From sequence record SRR31156797_8471: a stretch of 43,700 nucleotides of DNA; one strand, given 5' to 3'. The notes under the pieces were generated by a model that did not search any database, had not been told where the DNA came from, and worked only from the letters and a program-made list of their open reading frames with translations. The position numbers and the translations under genes were made by a program. Below, piece after piece: positions 31,917 through 43,700 of this stretch (the stretch's first letter is position 1; every line of letters starts with the position of its first letter).

Positions 31917-34274
31917 TTATCGATTCTCAAATCGGTTGTAGTCGAGTAAACCAAACTCGATTGGCTGGTCCTGCTTGTACCACTGATGAACTTTATCGCT
32001 GAATGACCAGAAATCCGGAGAACTACGGCGAACACCAAATCTATCCAGCAATTGAACATAACTCTCTTCACCATCAAGGGTTTTCAACCGTTCCACCAAC
32101 TCAGGTATCTCTGTTTCTCTTAGCGATAGATAAGCCGCTGGGTAACTCCCTAGCACACCTCTAACCAAGGTTAAGGTGTCATTTTCAGGCACTCGGTTAT
32201 CATCTTCATCAAACAAACTGTAAATGTTACTGTGAGCATTGTTGTGGATCAGCGTAAACAGTTGCGGTTGCTGAGATTTTGATTCAATCATCAACATCAT
32301 AAGCTGTGGAATCGGCAGGATCTGCTCACCTTTGATGTAGTTGATGCTATTCAACGCGTACTCATGTTCAGCAGTAAAACCCGTGTCTACGATGTCGTAG
32401 CGTGGACTTAAAACAGGGCTCACTCTGTCCTTCAGTTTCGCCATTAACTCAGATTTCGGGTTATCCGTTACATACTGAACGTTTGTTGGTTCATCAAATG
32501 GTTTCACATTACGCTGCAAGAACTCAGTAAAGTAAGCGGTTTGGTCTGCATACCAACTGGAGAACTCTTCATGGCGCATATCGCGAGGCAGTAGAGAAAT
32601 AAAGTTACTTTCCCCTTCCATCCGCAAAAAGTCCATAAACATCCGTGTCACTAACTGATGACCAAAATTCCCGTATACATCAAAGCCAGCCACTAACAGA
32701 TAATGAACCCGTTCAAGCAATGAGTAGTCGAATACCCAAGCCGTTTTTGGCTCTCGCCCCACTAGTCCTTGCGCGACAGAAGCACTATCAAAATGTCGGA
32801 AAACGGTTAAAGCCGCATTCGGGTTTTCGCCATCGCCAGACCAGATTAGGTCAGTGTTCATGTAGCGGCCGTCTTTAAACTGTTTATTGGCAAATTCCGA
32901 TTTTGCTTCAAGGTAACGAGCCTGCTGCTTAGCATAACTCACCCAGGTGGTGATTGGACTAATGGTATCCTCACGCTCCGCAGGCAACTTTAAGTTGTCC
33001 GCTTGAGAACGATAAAACTCAGTAGCTTCTGGGATATCCGCTTTGTCTGGGTCTAAGAAGAACACCCAAAAATGATCATTAATCACGTTCAGCGCCAGTT
33101 GTCCTCGGCAAACTGGGCCTTTGATAAAGCCCATAATGGTGTTCTGAGCATTATCAAGCAGGAAGCGATAGCGAGCGTTAATCGGCAGATCAATAAACGC
33201 CGTCATTGGGTTCGCGGCTACAGAAGGTTCGTAACCAGGAAGCTGGGACACGGTATAATCAGCATCGATAAACCACTCTTTCCAGCTTCTCATACGCTTT
33301 TTGTTTAACGCATAAGGCATATGAGTTTTATCTACGGTTGTGCCCTGTTCAGCAATCAAGCGGTAATAAACTCTATCAACCTGTGGGTCATCATAAGGGC
33401 GGCGGGTAGCAATACGCTTAACAGGTTCGCCCGGTGCAGTAGATGAGCGCACCAGAGTAAAGAAACGAGGTGATGCTTCTTTTAAATCGGAGAAATAGAT
33501 GTGAGACAAAAACAGATGCTCATAGATATAGCGAGCAGTTAACTGGTTTTTCAACCCATCGGCATTTAATAAGGTTTCGTAATTGTTGACTAATGTCTGC
33601 TGAGATTTCGTCAGAGGCACATGGTCATTCATGATGGCGCCGTTCTCTAACCAAGTCATCAACTTGTTGTACTCGGTTTTATTTAAGTTAGGCATACCGA
33701 AAGGCATACCCCAATCCGGATAGTCCTGCTGATATGCCTCATGTTCTTCTAACGTTGGACACTGCTGCTCTCGGTAGATAGAAAAATCGAAACCTTCCAG
33801 CTGATCTTGCTGCTGCTGTGGGTGCAGCTCTTTTTGCTTAAGTAGACGAGCAACCAGCCCCGCCTCTAGGTTCGCTCTGGTGGTTTGATCGCGCTCATTT
33901 AGAACGGGGTGAAAACCAAAGTCTCGCCACTGTTGTGTCGTCTCTGCATCTTCAAACAAACGAGTGGGTGTCGCTGCACTTAAACGAGAGCCTTCATAGA
34001 CCATCTCTTTGCTAGCACCACGATCAATCCCTTCCACCGACGAAAGCTTCAACTGACAAGGCGCGTCATAACAGGCGTGACAAACAACACAACGATTATC
34101 AATAATCGGCTTAACTTCATTCATAAAGTATTCAGCTTGTGGCGACTCTAGCGCGACCTGACGTTCTCTAACTTCCGCAGAGCCAAACAGTTGATCGTAA
34201 TTAAGGCCTGCATAGGTAGCACAACCAGAAACCACGACGACCAGTGAAATGAAAAAGAGTTTACGTAAATTCAT
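31917..34274 (-). CDS. cti: Fatty acid cis/trans isomerase
   Basis: Lipoprotein signal (VSGC), heme motif RCVVCHACYDAPCQLKL, RYIYEHLFL, FIKGPVCRGQLALNVI, TVFRHFDSASV, terminal NRFENR. Confidence 0.93.
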   Translation of the reverse strand: MNLRKLFFISLVVVVSGCATYAGLNYDQLFGSAEVRERQVALESPQAEYFMNEVKPIIDNRCVVCHACYDAPCQLKLSSVEGIDRGASKEMVYEGSRLSAATPTRLFEDAETTQQWRDFGFHPVLNERDQTTRANLEAGLVARLLKQKELHPQQQQDQLEGFDFSIYREQQCPTLEEHEAYQQDYPDWGMPFGMPNLNKTEYNKLMTWLENGAIMNDHVPLTKSQQTLVNNYETLLNADGLKNQLTARYIYEHLFLSHIYFSDLKEASPRFFTLVRSSTAPGEPVKRIATRRPYDDPQVDRVYYRLIAEQGTTVDKTHMPYALNKKRMRSWKEWFIDADYTVSQLPGYEPSVAANPMTAFIDLPINARYRFLLDNAQNTIMGFIKGPVCRGQLALNVINDHFWVFFLDPDKADIPEATEFYRSQADNLKLPAEREDTISPITTWVSYAKQQARYLEAKSEFANKQFKDGRYMNTDLIWSGDGENPNAALTVFRHFDSASVAQGLVGREPKTAWVFDYSLLERVHYLLVAGFDVYGNFGHQLVTRMFMDFLRMEGESNFISLLPRDMRHEEFSSWYADQTAYFTEFLQRNVKPFDEPTNVQYVTDNPKSELMAKLKDRVSPVLSPRYDIVDTGFTAEHEYALNSINYIKGEQILPIPQLMMLMIESKSQQPQLFTLIHNNAHSNIYSLFDEDDNRVPENDTLTLVRGVLGSYPAAYLSLRETEIPELVERLKTLDGEESYVQLLDRFGVRRSSPDFWSFSDKVHQWYKQDQPIEFGLLDYNRFENR

Positions 34275-34594
34275 ATAGTTATTGTTTTGAGTTAACCAAC
34301 TTTAATTAAAGTAGAGACTACTATAATTTCAACTTTCTTAAGATAACACATTGTGAAATTTATCTTTGACAACCAAGCATATGCCATTAGGCGAGCAAGG
34401 CTGTAGGTATTTCTTACACAATTAATTTTTTATCTAACCAACAAACCAAGAAATTTGTTTAAAATGCCGTGAATTGAAATATACCGCCTACGTTAAGGCT
34501 CATCATTCTCAAGTTACTATAATCTAATCATGGTAAAGCAGAATTAACAGCAATAGCCCAAAAACTCATAGGGTGGCACCAGCCAAGTATCACA

Positions 34595-34960
34595 ATGACA
34601 AATCACATCGAGCAAAGAAAATATTTTCGACTGAGCTACAAATCGAAACAAGTTATGCCAACACTTCGAGTGAATAACCGAGAATTTAGCGTGAGTGAAA
34701 TATCGGAACAAGGCATGCGTGTGATTAGCCGAGATCCAACCCTATTTAGCATCGGTGATATTGTAAAGGGTGAAATCTTACTGAACTCGCTTGAGACCAA
34801 TATTCACATTGATGGAAAAGTGTTGAGAGTCGTGGGCAATGAAGTGATTTGTCACCTACGAGAAGGACTATCTTTTAAAGATATGATTGCCGAGCAAAGA
34901 TACTTACGTAAACACTTTCCGAACGTATTACCTAAGGGGACTATTGAGTCCAAAAGTTAG
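34595..34960 (+). CDS. PilZ domain protein
   Basis: QRKYFR (RxxxR) and EISEQG ([D/N/E]xSxxG) motifs. Confidence 0.82.
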   Translation: MTNHIEQRKYFRLSYKSKQVMPTLRVNNREFSVSEISEQGMRVISRDPTLFSIGDIVKGEILLNSLETNIHIDGKVLRVVGNEVICHLREGLSFKDMIAEQRYLRKHFPNVLPKGTIESKS

Positions 34961-34999
34961 CAGCGATATGAATAAAAAAGAGCGCTAAGTACGAGAGTG

Positions 35000-35040
35000 G
35001 TTCACTTCAGAGTAGCAATGTCTCTAATTCTGAAGTGAAC
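35000..35040. repeat. Perfect 12-bp inverted repeat just outside the Tn7-like end
   Basis: GTTCACTTCAGA (35000-35011) / TCTGAAGTGAAC (35029-35040), 17-bp spacer. Confidence 0.8.
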
Positions 35041-35054
35041 GATGAGCAATTAAT

Positions 35055-35131
35055 TGTGCAGCGACAATAAAGTTTGTATTTAATTGTATTTTTAAGACAA
35101 GTAGATTCTGTACTTAACCTAAAGCCCGAAC
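35055..35131 (+). repeat. Tn7-like transposon end (terminal TGT plus TnsB-binding sites)
   Basis: TGTGCAGCGACAATAAAGTT resembles the Tn7 terminus TGTGGGCGGACAATAAAGTC; a second site GACAAGTAGATTCTGTACTT at 35096-35115 and a weaker third at 35116-35131. Confidence 0.72.
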
Positions 35132-35145
35132 CTATTGCTTCCCCT

Positions 35146-35204
35146 AAATTTACACGAAACGTGAATTTACATGAATCATGTAAATATTCTTTCCGTGTAA
35201 ATTT
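35146..35204. repeat. 59-bp nested palindrome
   Basis: AAATTTACACG/CGTGTAAATTT outer arms and ATTTACATG-AAT-CATGTAAAT inner arms. Confidence 0.8.
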
Positions 35205-35287
35205 GACCACTATCCCTCATTTATCCATGAAATCCATCTATCTTTCTAGAAAATCACACTTCCCTGTGGATCCATAAGAGGTCTCTG

Positions 35288-35494
35288 ATGAACGAAAATC
35301 TCGACGAGTTGCTCCCTATACTAAAAGAATTCAACCTAGAAAATGTATCCTTTAAGGTGGTCGACCCATCACTATTACCAGAAAAAACGCTAAAGTCTTT
35401 CAATATCTTTATGTCAGGTTCAACTGTCCCACACAGGACTTACGTATACAGTTATGATTATGCAAGATTTTGTATGCTCGTTCGTAGGGGGTGA
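35288..35494 (+). CDS. Small hypothetical protein (68 aa)
   Basis: ATG with AGAGG RBS, globular-looking sequence; no family recognised with confidence. Confidence 0.6.
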   Translation: MNENLDELLPILKEFNLENVSFKVVDPSLLPEKTLKSFNIFMSGSTVPHRTYVYSYDYARFCMLVRRG

Positions 35495-35811
35495 TATACT
35501 TATATTGTGTCAATTATTTATTTACTATCAATTAGTTATATATATAACAGTAATCCAACATAAATCGATATAGCTAAGTGAATCGTAACGGTTGAGCCTG
35601 ACTCAACCTATAAATCTAGTGTTCAGCAATAACCTTCAGAATTAAAATTAGGTTTCATTTGGCAAAAGACCTAACCCAGACCAAATGCCATATGACTATA
35701 ATGTGTGCCATATCATAAACATATCGCTTGAATATAGAGTAAGCTACCACTGATGCATATATATACAAATTGGAATCTATTCACCTAACGTCATCAGGGA
35801 AGGAGCCTTTA

Positions 35812-36882
35812 ATGGCCGAAACATTTAGCAATCTAAATTTCAAACGAATCATTCTCCATAACGTATACCCACCAAATGATGAAGGACTGGTAACACCATT
35901 TTGCAGTACTGTTTTAACGCAACTAGATCATAACGCTTCACAGAAGCTCGAAGAACGTCTTACATCAGTTTTAGGGTCTAGTTCACATAGCTTACAGATG
36001 AACATAGCCCAAGACGGTAAAGCAAGTTGCTTTCACTTTTCCAGTCAACTACTGGACGCATCAGACAGTGACTTCATAAAAGATTCGTGTGAACTTGCAA
36101 ATTTGCATACTTCCGCCCATACAAATAAATCTTGGCCCGGTGGCACACTGGTAATCATCGACGGAACATCTGGTGCAGCTAACCGGAGATGCTTATTCAT
36201 AATAAAAGCCGAGCAGCAAGCCGGATTTATTGAAAGCCAAGAAGAAAACACTATCAAACTGTCTTACATAGAAAATCTGATCCTTACTCCCCAAGCGAGG
36301 CTTTACAAAGTGGGGGTTTTTGTCGAACAAGATGACAAATCCTTAGCTGATGAGATTCGCGATAAAGACGAATTTGAGGCCTATGTTTTCGATAGCAACA
36401 TTAAGGCAAAAGATGATCGTAACGCGGCTAAATACTTCTATTCCGGTTTTCTAGGCCTTCAAGTGCCTGAAAATGCAGAACAAAGAACTCGTGACTTTTT
36501 CGAATATTCTAGAGAGTACATAAATGGTTCTCGGCTACCTGATGAGAAAAAAATAGATGTTCAACAAGCTCTACACACCTACCTAAAAACTGATCAAAGT
36601 AATACAATCCAGGCCTCAGAATTCGCAGAAAAATACCTGCCGGAGGAGTACCGGGATGACTATAATGATTATGTCGTTAAAAAAGGTTTTCCTGCTACTG
36701 CAGTAGTAAAAGACACCTCTCTGATAAAGAGGAAGTTAGCCACTCGTAAGATGAACTTTTCTAGTGATGTAAAGCTAACTGCACCAGCAGAGAAGTTCTC
36801 AGAGTTAGTGAAGATTATTGAAGCAACTGATGACCATACAACAATCCAGGTCAAAGGTAAGCTTTCAGAACAAGACAAATGA
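35812..36882 (+). CDS. NA37/YejK (NdpA)-like nucleoid-associated protein
   Basis: About 356 aa; N-terminal FKRIILHNV, central GGTLVII...LFIIKAE, LYKVGVF, AKYFYSGFLG, TRDFF pattern typical of NA37-superfamily proteins; start at the ATG at 35812 behind AAGGAG. Confidence 0.7.
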   Translation: MAETFSNLNFKRIILHNVYPPNDEGLVTPFCSTVLTQLDHNASQKLEERLTSVLGSSSHSLQMNIAQDGKASCFHFSSQLLDASDSDFIKDSCELANLHTSAHTNKSWPGGTLVIIDGTSGAANRRCLFIIKAEQQAGFIESQEENTIKLSYIENLILTPQARLYKVGVFVEQDDKSLADEIRDKDEFEAYVFDSNIKAKDDRNAAKYFYSGFLGLQVPENAEQRTRDFFEYSREYINGSRLPDEKKIDVQQALHTYLKTDQSNTIQASEFAEKYLPEEYRDDYNDYVVKKGFPATAVVKDTSLIKRKLATRKMNFSSDVKLTAPAEKFSELVKIIEATDDHTTIQVKGKLSEQDK

Positions 36883-37898
36883 CCCAGGAAGAATTTGCTG
36901 CACGTTATGAACAAGAAAAGCCTATGTATGAAGCATGGGCTGATTTTGTGTTGTCTGAGATTAAGTCCGGCTTACTTAATTTGCTAGGTAACAGTAAACC
37001 TAAGTACGATGAATACGTAAAAATGACTCCATCCAGCAGAGTCAAAACAACAGAGTCTCTTCTTACAAAGGCTTTTATTCGAAAAAAAGATAAATACCAA
37101 GATCCTTACTCACAAATAACGGATAAAGCTGGGATTCGTTTTGTCGTTCTCTTAACACAACAATTGGATCAACTTTGTTCTATCATCGAAAACCACAAAT
37201 CTTGGACATATTCCAAAGACAAAGAATTTGATGAGTGGCGAACATCAGATCCTCGAATGTTCGATTATCAATCTGTACACTACATCGTTCGCGCCCAAAT
37301 GACCTTCGTCCATAAAGGCGTAACAATCGATGAAGATACACCTTGTGAAGTTCAGTTTAGAACATTGCTACAACATGCCTACGCAGAATTAGCACATGAC
37401 ACCATATACAAAGGAGATGTGGATGCATCTCCAACAGTCAAACGCTGCTTTGCTAAAAGCATGGCCTTAATGGAAACCACAGATGAACTATTGTGCGGAG
37501 CAAAAGCCGAATTAGAAAAATGTGCAGGCATTATTACACAATGGCGAGAAGTGGCACTAAGTCAAGCCAGCAAGCTTTTACCAGCTTCGCATTGGATTGA
37601 TGATACCAAAAACATTGAATTTTACCTGTCAGAGTTCCAACCATTGCTCAGTACGTTAAGTATTGATGACTTGCTTGAATTTTTAGGTGACCATGAATAT
37701 TCATTTTTGGCATCACGAATTGAATCCCACCAAAATAATAAAGCTTTTGTTGAATTTAAACTTCCTGTGATTCTTGTCTGTTATTTTTTAGCCAAAAAGA
37801 AAAAATCAGTTATAAAAAAATATTGGCCAACAGACTTTCATGTTTTACAAATTATTTTTAACGATCTCGGTTTAGCACCTAACTGGGCTACACACTAA
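36879..37898 (+). CDS. RelA/SpoT-type nucleotidyltransferase (small alarmone synthetase-like) with C-terminal extension
   Basis: Synthetase motifs SRVKTTESL, ITDKAGIRFV, YQSVHYIV, EVQFRTLLQHAYAELAHDTIYK; no HD hydrolase domain; ATGA overlap with the upstream gene. Confidence 0.88.
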   Translation: MTQEEFAARYEQEKPMYEAWADFVLSEIKSGLLNLLGNSKPKYDEYVKMTPSSRVKTTESLLTKAFIRKKDKYQDPYSQITDKAGIRFVVLLTQQLDQLCSIIENHKSWTYSKDKEFDEWRTSDPRMFDYQSVHYIVRAQMTFVHKGVTIDEDTPCEVQFRTLLQHAYAELAHDTIYKGDVDASPTVKRCFAKSMALMETTDELLCGAKAELEKCAGIITQWREVALSQASKLLPASHWIDDTKNIEFYLSEFQPLLSTLSIDDLLEFLGDHEYSFLASRIESHQNNKAFVEFKLPVILVCYFLAKKKKSVIKKYWPTDFHVLQIIFNDLGLAPNWATH

Positions 37899-37961
37899 AA
37901 TCCAGAGATTACGCACCATTTCCTAGAACAACCAATTTAGAGTTATCGATTATATTTAGCG

Positions 37962-39431
37962 CTAAACAGGCAAGATATTTTCTTTTATCAGTTGAGAAGC
38001 ACCTAACCCTGAAGCCTTTGTGACATATTGCATATTGGCTCCAGCTAGAATTGCAGATACCGCCATTATATCTCGGATTGAGTGCAAAGTTTTCCCTTCG
38101 GCTTGAACAGTATCAAATACTTTAAAAGCTTCTCTGAACATCTTGTTGAGCACCTTAGGATCAATCGGCTTTAGACCAGACTTAGAGACTAACAAAGGAC
38201 TATTTGAATTAAATTTTCCATTAAGCCTACTCTCGATATACCTTTTCATTTTCTTTTCAACATTCCTTGGTAACAGAGCCGTTCTATAGGAGCAACCAAC
38301 CCTCTCTCTTTTCAATCGAATAACTAATAAACCTGATATAGGCTCACGACTAATGTCATCAAATATTGGAAAAGTCTCTCCTATAGATGTTAATTCACTA
38401 TGTGTACTAAACGTCGATTTCATGAGCGTGAACAGCCACTCGACAGTATCAGCCTCATAGCTAGATGGTTCAAAAAAATGGCCAATATGGGATAGTAAAT
38501 CAGAATAAGTCGATATTTGACGATCACTAATATGGACGGGCAAACTCGAATTTTGAAATATTGACACAAGAATACTTCTTACATCAACTTCATCGACCGG
38601 CCTGAAAGCAGTACCATCTTCAATATCTGTACAATACTCTCTATAAGGACATGAAAGGCAGTCGTGACGTGCTTTATAAAAATAAAAACCATCTCTTACA
38701 CAAGCTTCAACGCTGGCATATAGAAACGTTTTTAATACCTCTTTTTCATTATCAGGGAAACTATTCAGGTATTGATAAAACAAACTGATCGTATTGGAGA
38801 AAGCCCCCTCATAACCATTAAAATCAAAAAAACCAAAGCTACGAGTACTTTTAAAATACTCAACCAATACACATGGAGCAACTACACTAGATCTGTTTTC
38901 GTATAAGTTTTTTGTTGAAATCGCACTCTCTGGATAAGAGAGGAAATCTCCGTCTAATACTTTCATAAATGTATCGGACAGACTTAATCCTAATTTATCT
39001 GACGTATCAAAAATGCTTAACAACTTGTGTCCGTGGACTAGACACCGATGATTAAACATCCAATCTTTCCTTAGCCACGAATGCCCATAGTAATAGATCT
39101 GTTCAGAGATGCAATCCGGACAATAACGCATTGATTTATCATTTTTCTCATCAGGAAATACAACCTCATTACTCCCAAGAGATTGTGAAGTAATGAGTTG
39201 ACTGTTCGGAGCACTTTTGGCTCTTTTACTAGCTTCTTCAAAGAGCAAACTGTGACTTTCGCCAACTAATTCATATAACTTATCGGATGCTTTTTTAGGA
39301 TTAACAAAATTTCCATTTTTCAGGAGGATATACTTGTGAAAAAACGGTGCAGTTAAAATACTATTAAAACGAGCAAGCCTATATATGTAACTGTACAGAG
39401 ACTCACTTGCCTTCAGATGTGGAACAAACAT
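37962..39431 (-). CDS. TniQ-family protein fused to a degenerate tyrosine-recombinase catalytic domain
   Basis: TniQ N-terminus (P...ESLYSYIYRLARFN) and Zn finger (RYCPDC...W....RCLVHGHKL); C-terminal integrase-like segment (RTALLP, SPLLVSKSG, TLHSIRD, AGANMQYV). Confidence 0.78.
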   Translation of the reverse strand: MFVPHLKASESLYSYIYRLARFNSILTAPFFHKYILLKNGNFVNPKKASDKLYELVGESHSLLFEEASKRAKSAPNSQLITSQSLGSNEVVFPDEKNDKSMRYCPDCISEQIYYYGHSWLRKDWMFNHRCLVHGHKLLSIFDTSDKLGLSLSDTFMKVLDGDFLSYPESAISTKNLYENRSSVVAPCVLVEYFKSTRSFGFFDFNGYEGAFSNTISLFYQYLNSFPDNEKEVLKTFLYASVEACVRDGFYFYKARHDCLSCPYREYCTDIEDGTAFRPVDEVDVRSILVSIFQNSSLPVHISDRQISTYSDLLSHIGHFFEPSSYEADTVEWLFTLMKSTFSTHSELTSIGETFPIFDDISREPISGLLVIRLKRERVGCSYRTALLPRNVEKKMKRYIESRLNGKFNSNSPLLVSKSGLKPIDPKVLNKMFREAFKVFDTVQAEGKTLHSIRDIMAVSAILAGANMQYVTKASGLGASQLIKENILPV

Positions 39432-39543
39432 ATCTATAACCTAAATTAGTAAACGCGTTGATCTTGCCCTAGTTGAAGGTGAACAGAAAGTCTGGGATTA
39501 CTCAATGAATGTAATTAAAGAGTACTTGTAAGGGAAATCAGAT

Positions 39544-39768
39544 ATGCCCGTCGACTTTCTAACAACTGACCAAAAGCAAAGTTACGGGCAATTCAGCGGA
39601 GACCCAAATGATGTTCAGCTTGCACGTTACTTTCACTTAGATGAAACCGACCTGGAGTTTATAGCTCTGCGTCGCGGTGATCACAATCGGTTTGGTGTCG
39701 CCCTGCAATTAGGCTGTGTTCGCTTCCTGGGTACTGTCTTAACTGATTTAAGTCAGGTTCCAGTGAAT
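39544..39768 (+). pseudogene. tnpA: Tn3-family transposase N-terminal fragment
   Basis: MPVDFLTT...[10 protein letters not shown]...[21 protein letters not shown] matches the Tn3 TnpA N-terminus; similarity ends near residue 75 and the ORF stops at 39831. Confidence 0.9.
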
Positions 39769-39886
39769 GCCCCAAACCTTTCTAGTTACATTTTCTTTTC
39801 AACTGTTGGTAAACTGGTTTTGCTATACTAAAACTTACTTGGGAGCAAATATAACTGATAGTCATAATATCTAAAGGGGGATTATT

Positions 39887-40054
39887 TTGACTCTAGATAA
39901 AAACAGAAGAGATAGCGAAGATATAGATGTTGAAGGTGCTATCAAGCGTATGCGATCTCATTCAAGAAATACCAGATCATCATTTGGTAAACATCTTAAA
40001 GTTAAAGCGCCCAAGTCTGCATATGGACGCTTTGCTGGGCCAACCAAAACATAA
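39887..40054 (+). CDS. Small basic hypothetical protein (55 aa, below the ORF-track cutoff)
   Basis: AAAGGGGG RBS 6 nt before TTG; frame reads MTLDKNRRDSEDIDVEGAIKRMRSHSRNTRSSFGKHLKVKAPKSAYGRFAGPTKT*. Confidence 0.45.
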   Translation: MTLDKNRRDSEDIDVEGAIKRMRSHSRNTRSSFGKHLKVKAPKSAYGRFAGPTKT

Positions 40055-40600
40055 AAGAGGTATTTTTAACCATGTAATCCAGAGTTTGCTTCTTTAATTC
40101 AGTGATGTCATTGATTATCTGAGATGAAGAAAATGGCAGCGATAACATTGATTTGCTGCCAAACCTGAATCAAAAATGCCCCTTTCCAATTTAACGTAAA
40201 TACTCAGTGATGAGTTACTCCACGGACTTTTCGATACTTTTTCTAATATCGCAACATCAAAACAATGGTACCTTCTGAGTCGCTGGCTATTCTGATAGAT
40301 ATTTACTTAGAATTATGGGCCACGCGTTTCCCTCCACGATTAAAAACACTTTTACGTCGACGAAATTTAACCATTAAAGATTAATAGAACCTGGATAACC
40401 GGCCAATGAGGTCACAATTCTCAGAATCTACTCATTTCGTTTGATGGGGTATGAATGATAATTAATAACGTTATACGAGCTATAATGTAAGTAAATATTG
40501 CAAATGCAGAGTCGTATGCAATGAGTTTGTTGAAGTGTTTGAGGCGGGCTAGGTCTTTCGGCGGTAGTTATCCGTTAGCTGTCACTGCTCAAACCGGGAG

Positions 40601-42942
40601 ATGTGTATGAGTTCAACAAATACCAAATCTGGTGCCTCCTCTTGTCATGAAGGAGGATCAGCAACTTCACATCATGCACATGAGACGCACAGTCACTATC
40701 AAGCTGATAACTCAGCTCTACAGGAACTCATCATTGAGGGTGCGGGTTGCGCAAGCTGTGTAGGGAAAATCGAATCAGCGTTAAAGGCAGTGCCCGGAGT
40801 GGATGGCGCTGAGATGAATTTTTCCCAGCGTACGGTAAGTGTGACTGGAACAGCTCAGACAGATACTTTGGTTAAAGCGGTAGAAAAAGCAGGCTACAAG
40901 GCAAAAGTTGCTGTTGCTGAGAGTGAAGATGATGCACTGAACGAAAAAGAGCAGGAAGACTGGGCTTACTACAAACGACTAATGCGTGAAATGACCATCG
41001 CATTGTCACTGGGTGTGCCCTTGATGGTTTACAGTATTATCGTTGGCGAAATGACGGTAAGCACAACAGGCGAGCGTCTTGCCTGGCTGGTTGTTGGGCT
41101 ACTGACCCTTGGAGTCATGGTGTTTTCGGGCAAACACTTTTTCGTAGGAGCCTGGCAGTCCTTTAAAAATCATTCGGCCAATATGGATACCCTGATTGCA
41201 TTGGGTACCGGGACCGCATGGGTTTATTCTATGGTCGTTGTGTTCGTACCTTATGCTATCCCGGAAATGGCTCGCCACGTCTATTTCGAAGCCACGGCCA
41301 TGATTATTGGTTTAATCGATCTGGGGCTGGCACTCGAACTCAAAGCCCGTGGACGCACATCGGAGGCCATTAAGCGTCTAATAGGTCTGCAAGCCAAAAC
41401 TGCCAGAGTTATTCGCGATAATAAAGAGTTGGATGTTGCCATTGAAAAGGTGCTGATGGACGATGTTGTGCGTGTCCGTCCTGGTGAAAAAATTCCTGTT
41501 GATGGTGACGTTATCGAAGGGCATACCGCCATTGATGAGTCGATGTTAACAGGTGAACCTATGCCCGTTGAAAAAAAGTAGGTGATTCTGTCGCGGCGGG
41601 TACCATCAATAAAAGTGGTTCCATTTTGTTTAAAGCAACTCGTGTCGGTAAGGACACAGCATTGGCGCAGATCATTAACATGGTTAAACGGGCGCAGAAT
41701 TCGAAGCCACCAATAGGCCGTTTAGTTGATGTAATATCCGCGTATTTTGTTCCTGTGGTGATGATAATCGCAGTAAGTAGTGCACTGGTTTGGCTCAACT
41801 TTGGTCCGGATCCGGCTGTGGCATTTTCCATCGTATCGGCAACGACAGTACTGATTATCGCCTGCCCCTGTGCGTTAGGTCTTGCAACGCCTATGTCGGT
41901 CATGGTGGGGGTGGGTAAAGCGGCAGAAGTTGGTGTGCTGATTCGCAATGGCGAAGCGTTGCAAACCGCATCGAAGATTTCTGCAATGATTCTTGATAAG
42001 ACCGGCACCATCACCCTGGGCTCACCTAAAGTCACTGATGTATTGGTTGCGGGTGAGCAGAATGAAGACACCATCCTCAAACTGGCGGCAACATTAGAAT
42101 CCGGCTCCGAACATCCATTGGCACTGGCGATTGTAGAATCTGCCCGGGAGAAAAGTATCGAAATGGGGAAGGTTTCCAATTTCAAAGCTATCGCCGGGCA
42201 CGGTGTGCAAGCAGAAGTGAATGGCAAAACACTACTGTTCGGTAATGAAAAATTGATGCGTGAGCATAACATCGAACTCGGTGATTTTATTGAAAAGGCA
42301 CAAGCCCTGGCCATCGAAGCAAAAACCCCGATGTACTTCGCTGTGGGCAACCAACTTTCCTCGATTATTGCGGTGGCTGATCCTATTAAGGAGGATTCAA
42401 TCGCTGCCATCAAACGCTTACAACATAACGGCATCCGCGTCGTCATGTTAACCGGCGACAATCGAGCCACTGCAAAAGCCGTCGCCGATAAAGCGGGCAT
42501 CAAAGAGTTCTTTGCTGAAGTACTGCCGGAAGACAAATCCAAAAAAGTTCAGGAACTACAGATGGAAGGTGAAGTGGTCGGAATGACCGGTGACGGAATC
42601 AATGATGCACCGGCTCTGGCAATTGCTAATGTGGGCTTTGCCATCGGCACGGGTACGGATGTTGCGATTGAGAGTGCTGATATTACCTTAATGCGTGGAT
42701 CACTGCATGGGCTTGCCGATGCCATTGCAGTGAGCAAAGCCACAATGCGAAATATCAAACAGAATCTGTTCGGTGCTTTTATTTACAACGCTGCGGGAGT
42801 GCCTTTTGCAGCGGGTGTGCTGTATCCATTTTTTGGTTTGCTGCTAAGCCCTGTTATAGCCGGTGCTGCGATGGCATTTTCGTCATTAACTGTTGTTACG
42901 AACGCTAACCGCCTGCGGTTGTTTAAATCGCAGGAACATTAA
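40601..42942 (+). pseudogene. copA: Copper-translocating P1B-type ATPase, split by a one-base frameshift (40601-41581 + about 41578-42942)
   Basis: GCASC HMA domain, [32 protein letters not shown] and MAFSS Cu(I) motifs; the frame breaks at GAA AAA AAG TAG (41570-41581), and one extra A restores PVEKKVGDSV. Confidence 0.9.
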
Positions 42943-42953
42943 GGGGAGCAGGT

Positions 42954-43307
42954 ATGTGGTTTATTAATATTGCTGGCATGGTTCTGATCGCGCTCATTAT
43001 TTGGTGGTTTTGGCTTTACAAGCCCAAAGAAGCGGAGATGGGAGACAATGATCTGGTGATTACAGTTGAAAACGGCACCTATTCGCCTTCGCGAATCAAG
43101 TTGCCCGCAGGCGAACCTGTCGAACTTAAATTCCTGCGCAAAGATCAGTCCCCTTGCTCAGAAACTCTGCTCATTCCCGAATTACAAATCAGTGATACCT
43201 TGCCACTCAACAAACTGAAATCCGTCCAGTTGCCTGCACTGAAGTCAGGTGAATACGCCTTTCATTGCCAGATGCAAATGTATCGTGGCCAGATCATAGT
43301 TAGTTAG
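42954..43307 (+). CDS. Membrane-anchored cupredoxin-domain protein (CupA-like)
   Basis: N-terminal TM, YSPSRI, SPCSE, GEYAFHCQMQMYRG copper motif; directly after copA. Confidence 0.88.
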   Translation: MWFINIAGMVLIALIIWWFWLYKPKEAEMGDNDLVITVENGTYSPSRIKLPAGEPVELKFLRKDQSPCSETLLIPELQISDTLPLNKLKSVQLPALKSGEYAFHCQMQMYRGQIIVS

Positions 43308-43388
43308 GGCTGGTTTGTTTTGTTCCGGTAAATAATTTGAGCGCAGTGCGATAGGTGGCGATTTTCAATTTCATTTGTGAGGTGTGAT

Positions 43389-43667
43389 ATGTCAATACAA
43401 AAATCATCATTCTGGTTAACTCCTAAAGGACTGGCGGCGCTGGGGCTTATCGGTGCAGCAACGTATTTCCTACTGACGGAACACCAGCAGCATGTCTGGC
43501 AGTTTTTGCCGTACCTGATTGTCTTAGCGTGCCCCTTTATGCATCTATTTATGCATCATGGTGGGCATGGTGGGGACCATCGGCACGAAGGTAAGTCTGA
43601 TCAAGATGCTAATCAACGTGGACTAGATGATGGACACAGGGACAACGATCATCGGCATCACCATTGA
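43389..43667 (+). CDS. DUF2933-like small membrane protein of copper clusters
   Basis: EHQQH...LPYLIVLACPFMHLFMHHGGHGG signature, His-rich tail; start at MSIQK behind GAGG. Confidence 0.82.
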   Translation: MSIQKSSFWLTPKGLAALGLIGAATYFLLTEHQQHVWQFLPYLIVLACPFMHLFMHHGGHGGDHRHEGKSDQDANQRGLDDGHRDNDHRHHH

Positions 43668-43700
43668 AACGATTTAGAACGGGAGAACGATAAATGCACG

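Follow-up and report, generated by a model that had tools for sequence, protein, structure and literature searches.

Choice of target by TnsD, TnsC and TnsA together with TnsB is well established for Tn7 and serves here as the model for the mechanism. Related systems are summarized below from the available parts of the respective publications. Tn6230 integrates between yhiN and yhiM (PMC10121019), and a Tn7/pco/sil element moved to this same site (PMC8417528); yhiN is also listed among TnsD safe harbours (PMC10201428), and a 2024 review, in its available text, lists the molecular details of yhiN targeting as unknown. The terminal repeat of Tn6230 is printed as TGT, 5 bp and GACAATAAAGTT (PMC13049778). 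In Vibrio cidicii VC01, a Tn7-like element with tnsABCD and tniQ adjoins yhiN and carries type I restriction-modification cargo (PMC12671221). Dual TniQ loci are described as common in general, and Tn6022 combines TniQ with TnsF for target choice; TnsF, whose target is comM, is a protein of its own that combines N-terminal zinc fingers with tandem CB domains and a partial CAT domain (PMC10293859). Type I PANGU consists of a two-gene operon encoding a YejK/NA37-like protein and a small alarmone synthetase (bioRxiv 10.64898/2026.04.06.716658).

Results

Left end and host flank

The window, i.e. the entire 43,700-nucleotide stretch of DNA analysed here, contains host genes up to pilZ (polA, hemB, tat, ubi, rmuC, ara, CTI, pilZ), followed by a transposon end and its cargo (Table 1). 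Read directly from the window, TGTGCAGCGACAATAAAGTT begins at 35055, with TTAAT immediately 5' of it. The end is composed of an 8-bp TGT terminus, TnsB site 1 (35063-35083, 21 bp) and TnsB-like site 2 (35096-35117), a degenerate copy with 17 of 21 positions identical and one 1-bp gap. Site 2 starts 33 bp after site 1; when the bases of the following 151 bp were shuffled 2000 times, 7 shuffles reached its score. The 12-mer core was not enriched in the window (one match at ≤2 mismatches vs 5.7 expected) and is not significant alone; we accept the end as real because homology to other contigs starts at the end itself, identity to the Vibrio genome G261 beginning at 35052 and to two metagenome contigs (L039, L040) at 35054. 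GC content was 0.355 at 35001-36000, as compared to about 0.39-0.49 across most of the host part. A first-pass annotation, made from the sequence alone, had described a TGT end with a second TnsB-like site 33 bp later and a switch to cargo genes right after it; both observations stand, the former with the same end in G261, L039 and L040, the latter with host genes on the left, cargo on the right and the drop in GC.

Table 1. Coordinates of the features discussed in the text
Feature	Position	Strand	Evidence and remarks
Host pilZ-domain gene, distal neighbour	34595..34960	+	PF07238
Host hairpin between convergent pilZ and yhiN	35000..35040	.	RNA fold of 34960-35054 about -24 kcal/mol
Predicted 5-bp target-site duplication TTAAT (yhiN strand: ATTAA)	35050..35054	+	fits '+4' class
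Left end, assigned to a Tn6230-family Tn7-like transposon	35055..35117	+	same end in G261, L039, L040
29-bp inverted repeat inside element	35146..35204	.	83% complementary; also in G059
68-aa ORF	35288..35494	+	29-bp inverted repeat upstream; 1-bp insertion vs G261 near 3' end
NA37/YejK-like nucleoid-associated protein, Pag1A-like	35770..36882	+	PF04245; start probably 35812
RelA/SpoT-domain small alarmone synthetase, Pag1B-like	36879..37898	+	PF04607; PADLOC PDC-S33, partial
Second TniQ fused to tyrosine-recombinase-like domain, 489 aa	37962..39431	- (tns strand)	PF06527 at residues 2-137
Presumed Tn3-type transposase fragment (DUF4158)	39544..39831	+	PF13700, 70/165 positions
Copper-resistance cargo start: P-type ATPase (two ORFs), cupredoxin, DUF2933	40601..43667	+

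Inside the end, the inverted repeat may be operator-like, and the 68-aa ORF downstream of it had zero Pfam or PADLOC matches, its best Atlas score of 0.89 being a lead only. In G059 (L046:9748-10148), a different yhiN element holds, some 170 bp inward from its own left end, a remnant of the window element's left end; this remnant comprises site 2, the inverted repeat and the small ORF at 87-96% identity. A Photobacterium marinum contig (L001:10001) carries an exact 20-mer of the end and a weak second site, possibly as an orphan end; a TniQ search of that genome was negative. A plasmid search with window 34300-35800 gave zero matches.

On the host side, the closest genome found was G245, with 86-90% DNA identity, and PilZ, CTI, UbiE and TatD, as well as the 68-aa ORF, had no exact match in the protein collection. 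The comparison with element-free relatives that the first-pass annotation had proposed showed pilZ and yhiN converging at the empty site in G145, 55 bp from stop to stop, and similarly in G205; in G288, likewise free of the element, a sugar cluster separates the two genes. The hairpin between pilZ and the end would be a possible shared terminator for pilZ and yhiN. A terminator scan called no sites, this hairpin included, and unrelated-looking hairpins were seen by eye at the equivalent place in G145, G059 and G245.

The complete element and its right side

When 285 Vibrio genomes were searched at the DNA level, G261 matched from window position 35052 onward and not before, with 99.2% identity over 35052-43700. 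The element in G261 is 42,055 bp long and has an inverted right end with three close TnsB sites, the first of which is identical to the window's site 1; ACAAT stands on both sides as a perfect 5-bp duplication. From the far end inward follow TnsA (278 aa; PF08722/PF08721), TnsB (708 aa), TnsC (479 aa; AAA_22/TniB), an IS256 and TnsD (529 aa; PF15978 and PF06527). TnsB had no Pfam match, yet it is 42-52% identical to the transposases of E. coli elements. Through G261, the element thus has TGT...ACA ends with repeated TnsB sites, a 5-bp duplication, and TnsA/B/C with TniQ/TnsD, as is characteristic of Tn7-like transposons. The first-pass annotation had suggested a search for tnsA/B/C and an inverted opposite end, and both are present in this near-identical copy; tnsA-C were also found in sequencing run X1.

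Since the tns genes of G261 read inward from the opposite, far end, 35055 is the left end (conventions for right and left as in the available part of PMC6360697). The data support its assignment as the tnsA-distal end with spaced sites of a Tn7-family element making 5-bp duplications. This agrees with the earlier reading as a left end, and matched duplications occur in 11 of 16 relatives (see below).

All sampled words of window 33500-36000 occur in run X1. The window may come from this run, which is hence not independent evidence. A 64.9-kb contig of X1 (contig 2), aligned to the right-end region of G261, showed three differences in 4,560 bp from tnsC to the right end and holds tnsA-C with no IS256. 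The alignment continues for 10 bp beyond the right end, the whole piece having at most three differences; such an overrun would fit TTAAT, the last yhiN codon and the stop directly after the end. Further on, the same contig aligns to parts of yhiN and to host genes beyond. An additional 20 kb or so separates the right end from the main part of yhiN on this contig (positions 11,611 and 32,761), as compared to 1,013 bp in G261. Because the tns genes and yhiN share one contig, yhiN very probably flanks the right end in the window's strain too. Of the runs with word shares of 0.33-0.56, three were compared and used as evidence; X15 and X6 gave fragments only, and X17 has the same tns module, which continues into a diverged stretch resembling yhiN.

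yhiN as the attachment gene

In G261 a 395-aa flavoprotein of the HI0933 family is encoded next to the right end, which starts 4 bp past the stop codon of the gene. This gene is the yhiN orthologue: it scored above the cut-off of TIGR00275, its protein is 61% identical to E. coli YhiN, and its DNA matched at a single locus in each of 5423 out of 5426 E. coli genomes, with yhiN as the annotation in the 8 matches listed. One study (PMC11317573) reportedly concerns the role of YhiN as an enzyme.

A search with the TnsD of G261 gave matches in 32 of the 285 Vibrio genomes. Flanks were fetched for 21 of them, and among the best 19 (E ≤ 4e-80) the right end was located 3-4 bp past the yhiN stop in 16 (3 bp in 11, 4 bp in 5); in the remaining three, the contigs end at tnsA. 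For G223 and G107, whose TnsD is 28-30% identical, the flank that was fetched did not contain yhiN. Eleven of the 16 Vibrio elements have a left end at which the 5-bp duplication matches perfectly; the other five were without a matched left end, G274 having a candidate left end with a mismatched flank. The '+4' class of duplications, composed of the last stop-codon base and 4 bp, accounts for 5 of the 16. Outside Vibrio, G002 and G004, two of four genomes sharing the first 20 bp of the window's end, have tnsABCD with the right end at yhiN; the duplication matches in G002, and the flank of the candidate left end in G004 does not.

Relative to the start of the conserved GGYN codons, the junction lies at 61-64 bp in 20 of 20 cases (63 bp in 12, 64 in six, 62 and 61 in one each). 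These junctions, all from occupied yhiN genes, span Vibrio, E. coli (two elements) and two other gammaproteobacteria. Since the offset is fixed relative to the GGYN codons whatever the position of the stop, we infer, by analogy with Tn7, that TnsD would recognize a site inside the yhiN coding sequence. Such a fixed distance from coding sequence, irrespective of the stop, is what Tn7-type TnsD/TnsC spacing predicts according to the available text of PMC11014353.

Several yhiN loci deserve mention in their own right. The E. coli insertions (L102:8743-8759, L103:7163-7168) lie within the last codons of yhiN, where the transposon end supplies a new C-terminus and stop. The element in G081 (L059:15763-17535) keeps the right end and tnsD, with tnsA-C deleted, and is an immobilised remnant. 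In G004 (L113:10329), a second, different Tn7-like end is nested between tnsC and tnsD, and in G295 (L115:6382-6426) two Tn7-like ends stand back to back, 5 bp apart, as a tandem array.

Cargo

To the right of the end follow genes for an NA37 protein, a RelA/SpoT-domain protein, a TniQ protein, a DUF4158 fragment, which we take to be of Tn3 type from PF13700, and copper genes; the named members of the clusters of these cargo proteins are Vibrio. The NA37 protein was found in its 356-aa form in the protein collection. Its ORF overlaps that of the small alarmone synthetase, so that the pair (35770-37898) has the bicistronic layout of a YejK-like nucleoid-associated protein and a toxSAS known from type I PANGU, and by this layout it is a putative type I PANGU-like anti-phage defence pair. 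The first P-type ATPase (40601-42942) is broken up into two ORFs owing to a 1-bp difference from G261, where it is one 780-aa ORF; the difference is either a real frameshift or an assembly error. The cargo of G261, most of it for copper resistance, continues with MerR, a second P-type ATPase, CusS/R and CusABC-type efflux.

A second TniQ with a recombinase-like tail

The TniQ protein of the cargo is fused to a C-terminal region (residues ~305-489) that resembles the catalytic domain of tyrosine recombinases, with a weak match to NF040815 at 377-473 (E 1.3e-4). An Atlas structure model of the fusion gave TM scores of 0.61-0.70 to integrases at a whole-model pLDDT of 0.57. AlphaFold models were too poor to use (pLDDT 34 alone, 39 with 6 sequences); Foldseek found nothing at E ≤ 0.001 with the latter kind of model, and its top three matches, tyrosine recombinases at E 0.13-0.39, were not counted. 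Aligned with two Xer-like G261 proteins, the homologues have the first Arg replaced by His, the His of LGH lost and no Tyr in 6 of 6, and they retain HxxR in 5 of 6; the ORF thus lacks the complete R-K-H-R-H/W-Y set of active tyrosine recombinases.

The TniQ N-terminus is homologous to the fifth ORF of an E. coli yhiN element (29% identity over 91 aa, E 2.6e-7), and the sole match in a sequence search of the PDB was the zinc-finger region of Tn7 TnsD. A second TniQ-like ORF on the tns strand, whole or partial, was present in 13 of 16 Vibrio elements by a profile search, the profile having been seeded by three of these 13. Near-full-length relatives of the fusion are few, with 6 clusters (named members Vibrio and Moritella) and one among the 50%-identity representatives; in 401 Vibrionaceae genomes such relatives were found in three, one decayed and one cut by a contig end. 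In G003 and G295 the homologue likewise sits inside a left end, about 6 kb inside in G295. A tblastn search of the plasmid collection with the fusion returned one weak match, in the N-terminal half.

Discussion

We assign a probability of about 0.92 to the reading of 35055 as the left end of a Tn6230-family Tn7-like transposon that is roughly 40 kb long and occupies the yhiN attachment site of a Vibrio. By analogy with Tn7, TnsD would bind the conserved codons near the 3' end of yhiN (GWLGGYNFQWxW), a TnsC ring would set the distance, and TnsA and TnsB would excise the element and insert it, right end facing yhiN, at 61-64 bp from the GGYN codons. Landing just past the stop would spare yhiN in Vibrio; in E. 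coli, landing in the last codons would rewrite the C-terminus. The left end would meet whatever lies downstream of yhiN, here pilZ.

With the right end at the 3' end of yhiN in G261 and 15 other Vibrio genomes, and with Tns proteins akin to those of yhiN elements from enterobacteria, the window element has the marks of the Tn6230 family. It shares with Tn6230 the attachment gene, tnsA-B-C-D reading inward from the yhiN-side end, the 5-bp duplication, a second TniQ-like ORF and copper cargo; the window end has the same core as the printed terminal repeat of Tn6230, and the GGYN offset is common to the window family and the two E. coli yhiN elements. Compared with the E. coli sil/cop element (L102), which from its cargo and site we take to be of Tn6230 type, identities are 43% for TnsA, 42% for TnsB, 47% for TnsC and 32% for TnsD; for the second E. 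coli element (L103) they are 52% (A), 52% (B) and 60% (C). Because its Tns proteins are only 32-47% identical to those of the sil/cop element, the window element is, on sequence grounds, a distinct member of the family and not Tn6230 itself, at a site already known. It differs further in that the Vibrio elements land outside the yhiN reading frame whereas the E. coli ones land inside its last codons, in the position and size of the second TniQ (489 aa with a recombinase-like tail near the left end, as opposed to 308 aa directly after tnsD in the Tn6230 type), in its copper cluster and in the added PANGU-like pair. By its description, the V. cidicii VC01 element is alike in host, site and tns genes but not in cargo.

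A composite island in the window's strain, formed by later insertion of another element, about 20 kb in size, between the transposon and yhiN, would add to this explanation, and we regard it as rather likely. The extra 20 kb on the X1 contig speak for it, as do the back-to-back ends in G295 and the remnant of a window-type left end in G059. The 10-bp overrun in X1, however, seems to fit TTAAT with the last codon and stop of yhiN and not a standard back-to-back tandem; possibly, the second element lies in the last codons of yhiN.

The first-pass annotation had proposed an unusual, new intergenic site downstream of a PilZ gene. A target defined by pilZ or by intergenic DNA on its side might seem to be indicated by the window, G059, G245 and L040, where different elements have their ends directly after pilZ or what remains of it, but on its left the same element borders in G261 on a sugar-uptake cluster, in L039 on the ara operon and in L040 on a G059-type flank. 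The first two already refute such a target, and because of these varied flanks pilZ is an incidental bystander. The yhiN side, by contrast, is constant within 1 bp in 16 of 16 elements, and it is the tnsA end that faces yhiN. A pilZ-defined site is accordingly very improbable, and the claim of novelty falls: yhiN is a published attachment gene that was absent from the list of familiar sites used at the time, and a known attachment gene on the far flank, which that annotation had itself named as fatal to a new site, is present in G261 and 15 other Vibrio genomes.

Hardly more credible is a CRISPR-guided element of type I-F3, with rsmJ or some other RNA-guided site as its target. The Vibrio host and a Csy3 gene in G261 would suit it, as would an ORF a few genes beyond yhiN that, by its sequence, we take to be rsmJ (the gene is named in E. 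coli). However, no Cas family was detected by Pfam in the 23 G261 cargo ORFs scanned or in the window cargo ORFs, the one Csy3 of G261 sits on another contig, a 529-aa TnsD with PF15978 is present, and the insertion abuts yhiN, not rsmJ. The unenriched 12-mer core and a window free of tns genes could point to an orphan end or a chance resemblance to an end, without an element attached; this is refuted by homology to three other contigs that starts at the end, the complete element in G261 and the tns genes in X1.

As to the second TniQ of this yhiN transposon, its fusion may be a candidate second target selector or may be a decayed chance fusion; some function is argued for by 46-84% identity conserved across species. 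We hold it possible, though doubtful, that yhiN-targeting elements have two selectors, TnsD reading the yhiN codons 61-64 bp from the cut and the second TniQ serving another pathway, in this lineage with a captured dead recombinase domain as DNA-reading module. An equally tentative idea, taken jointly with that one, is that of a single-chain selector independent of TnsF, perhaps aimed at dif-, res- or att-like sites on plasmids or mobile DNA. The concept resembles that of Tn6022, where an inactivated tyrosine-recombinase-derived domain acts with TniQ in target choice, but the window protein combines a TniQ core with a CAT-like domain and is set apart from TnsF by the architecture described for the latter. 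The one TniQ-TnsF fusion noted in the available text of PMC10293859 is entirely without CAT. In the available text of PMC10293859, PMC11014353 and PMC9881144, only TnsF-type cases of TniQ-recombinase fusions were found; their supplements may list others.

In conclusion, the fixed offset from the GGYN codons narrows down where TnsD should bind yhiN, for which the targeting mechanism has been listed as unknown. X1 suggests an uninterrupted tnsABCD module, which would be usable for testing yhiN targeting, and the fusion of TniQ with a dead recombinase domain provides a small and rare candidate for a further target selector.
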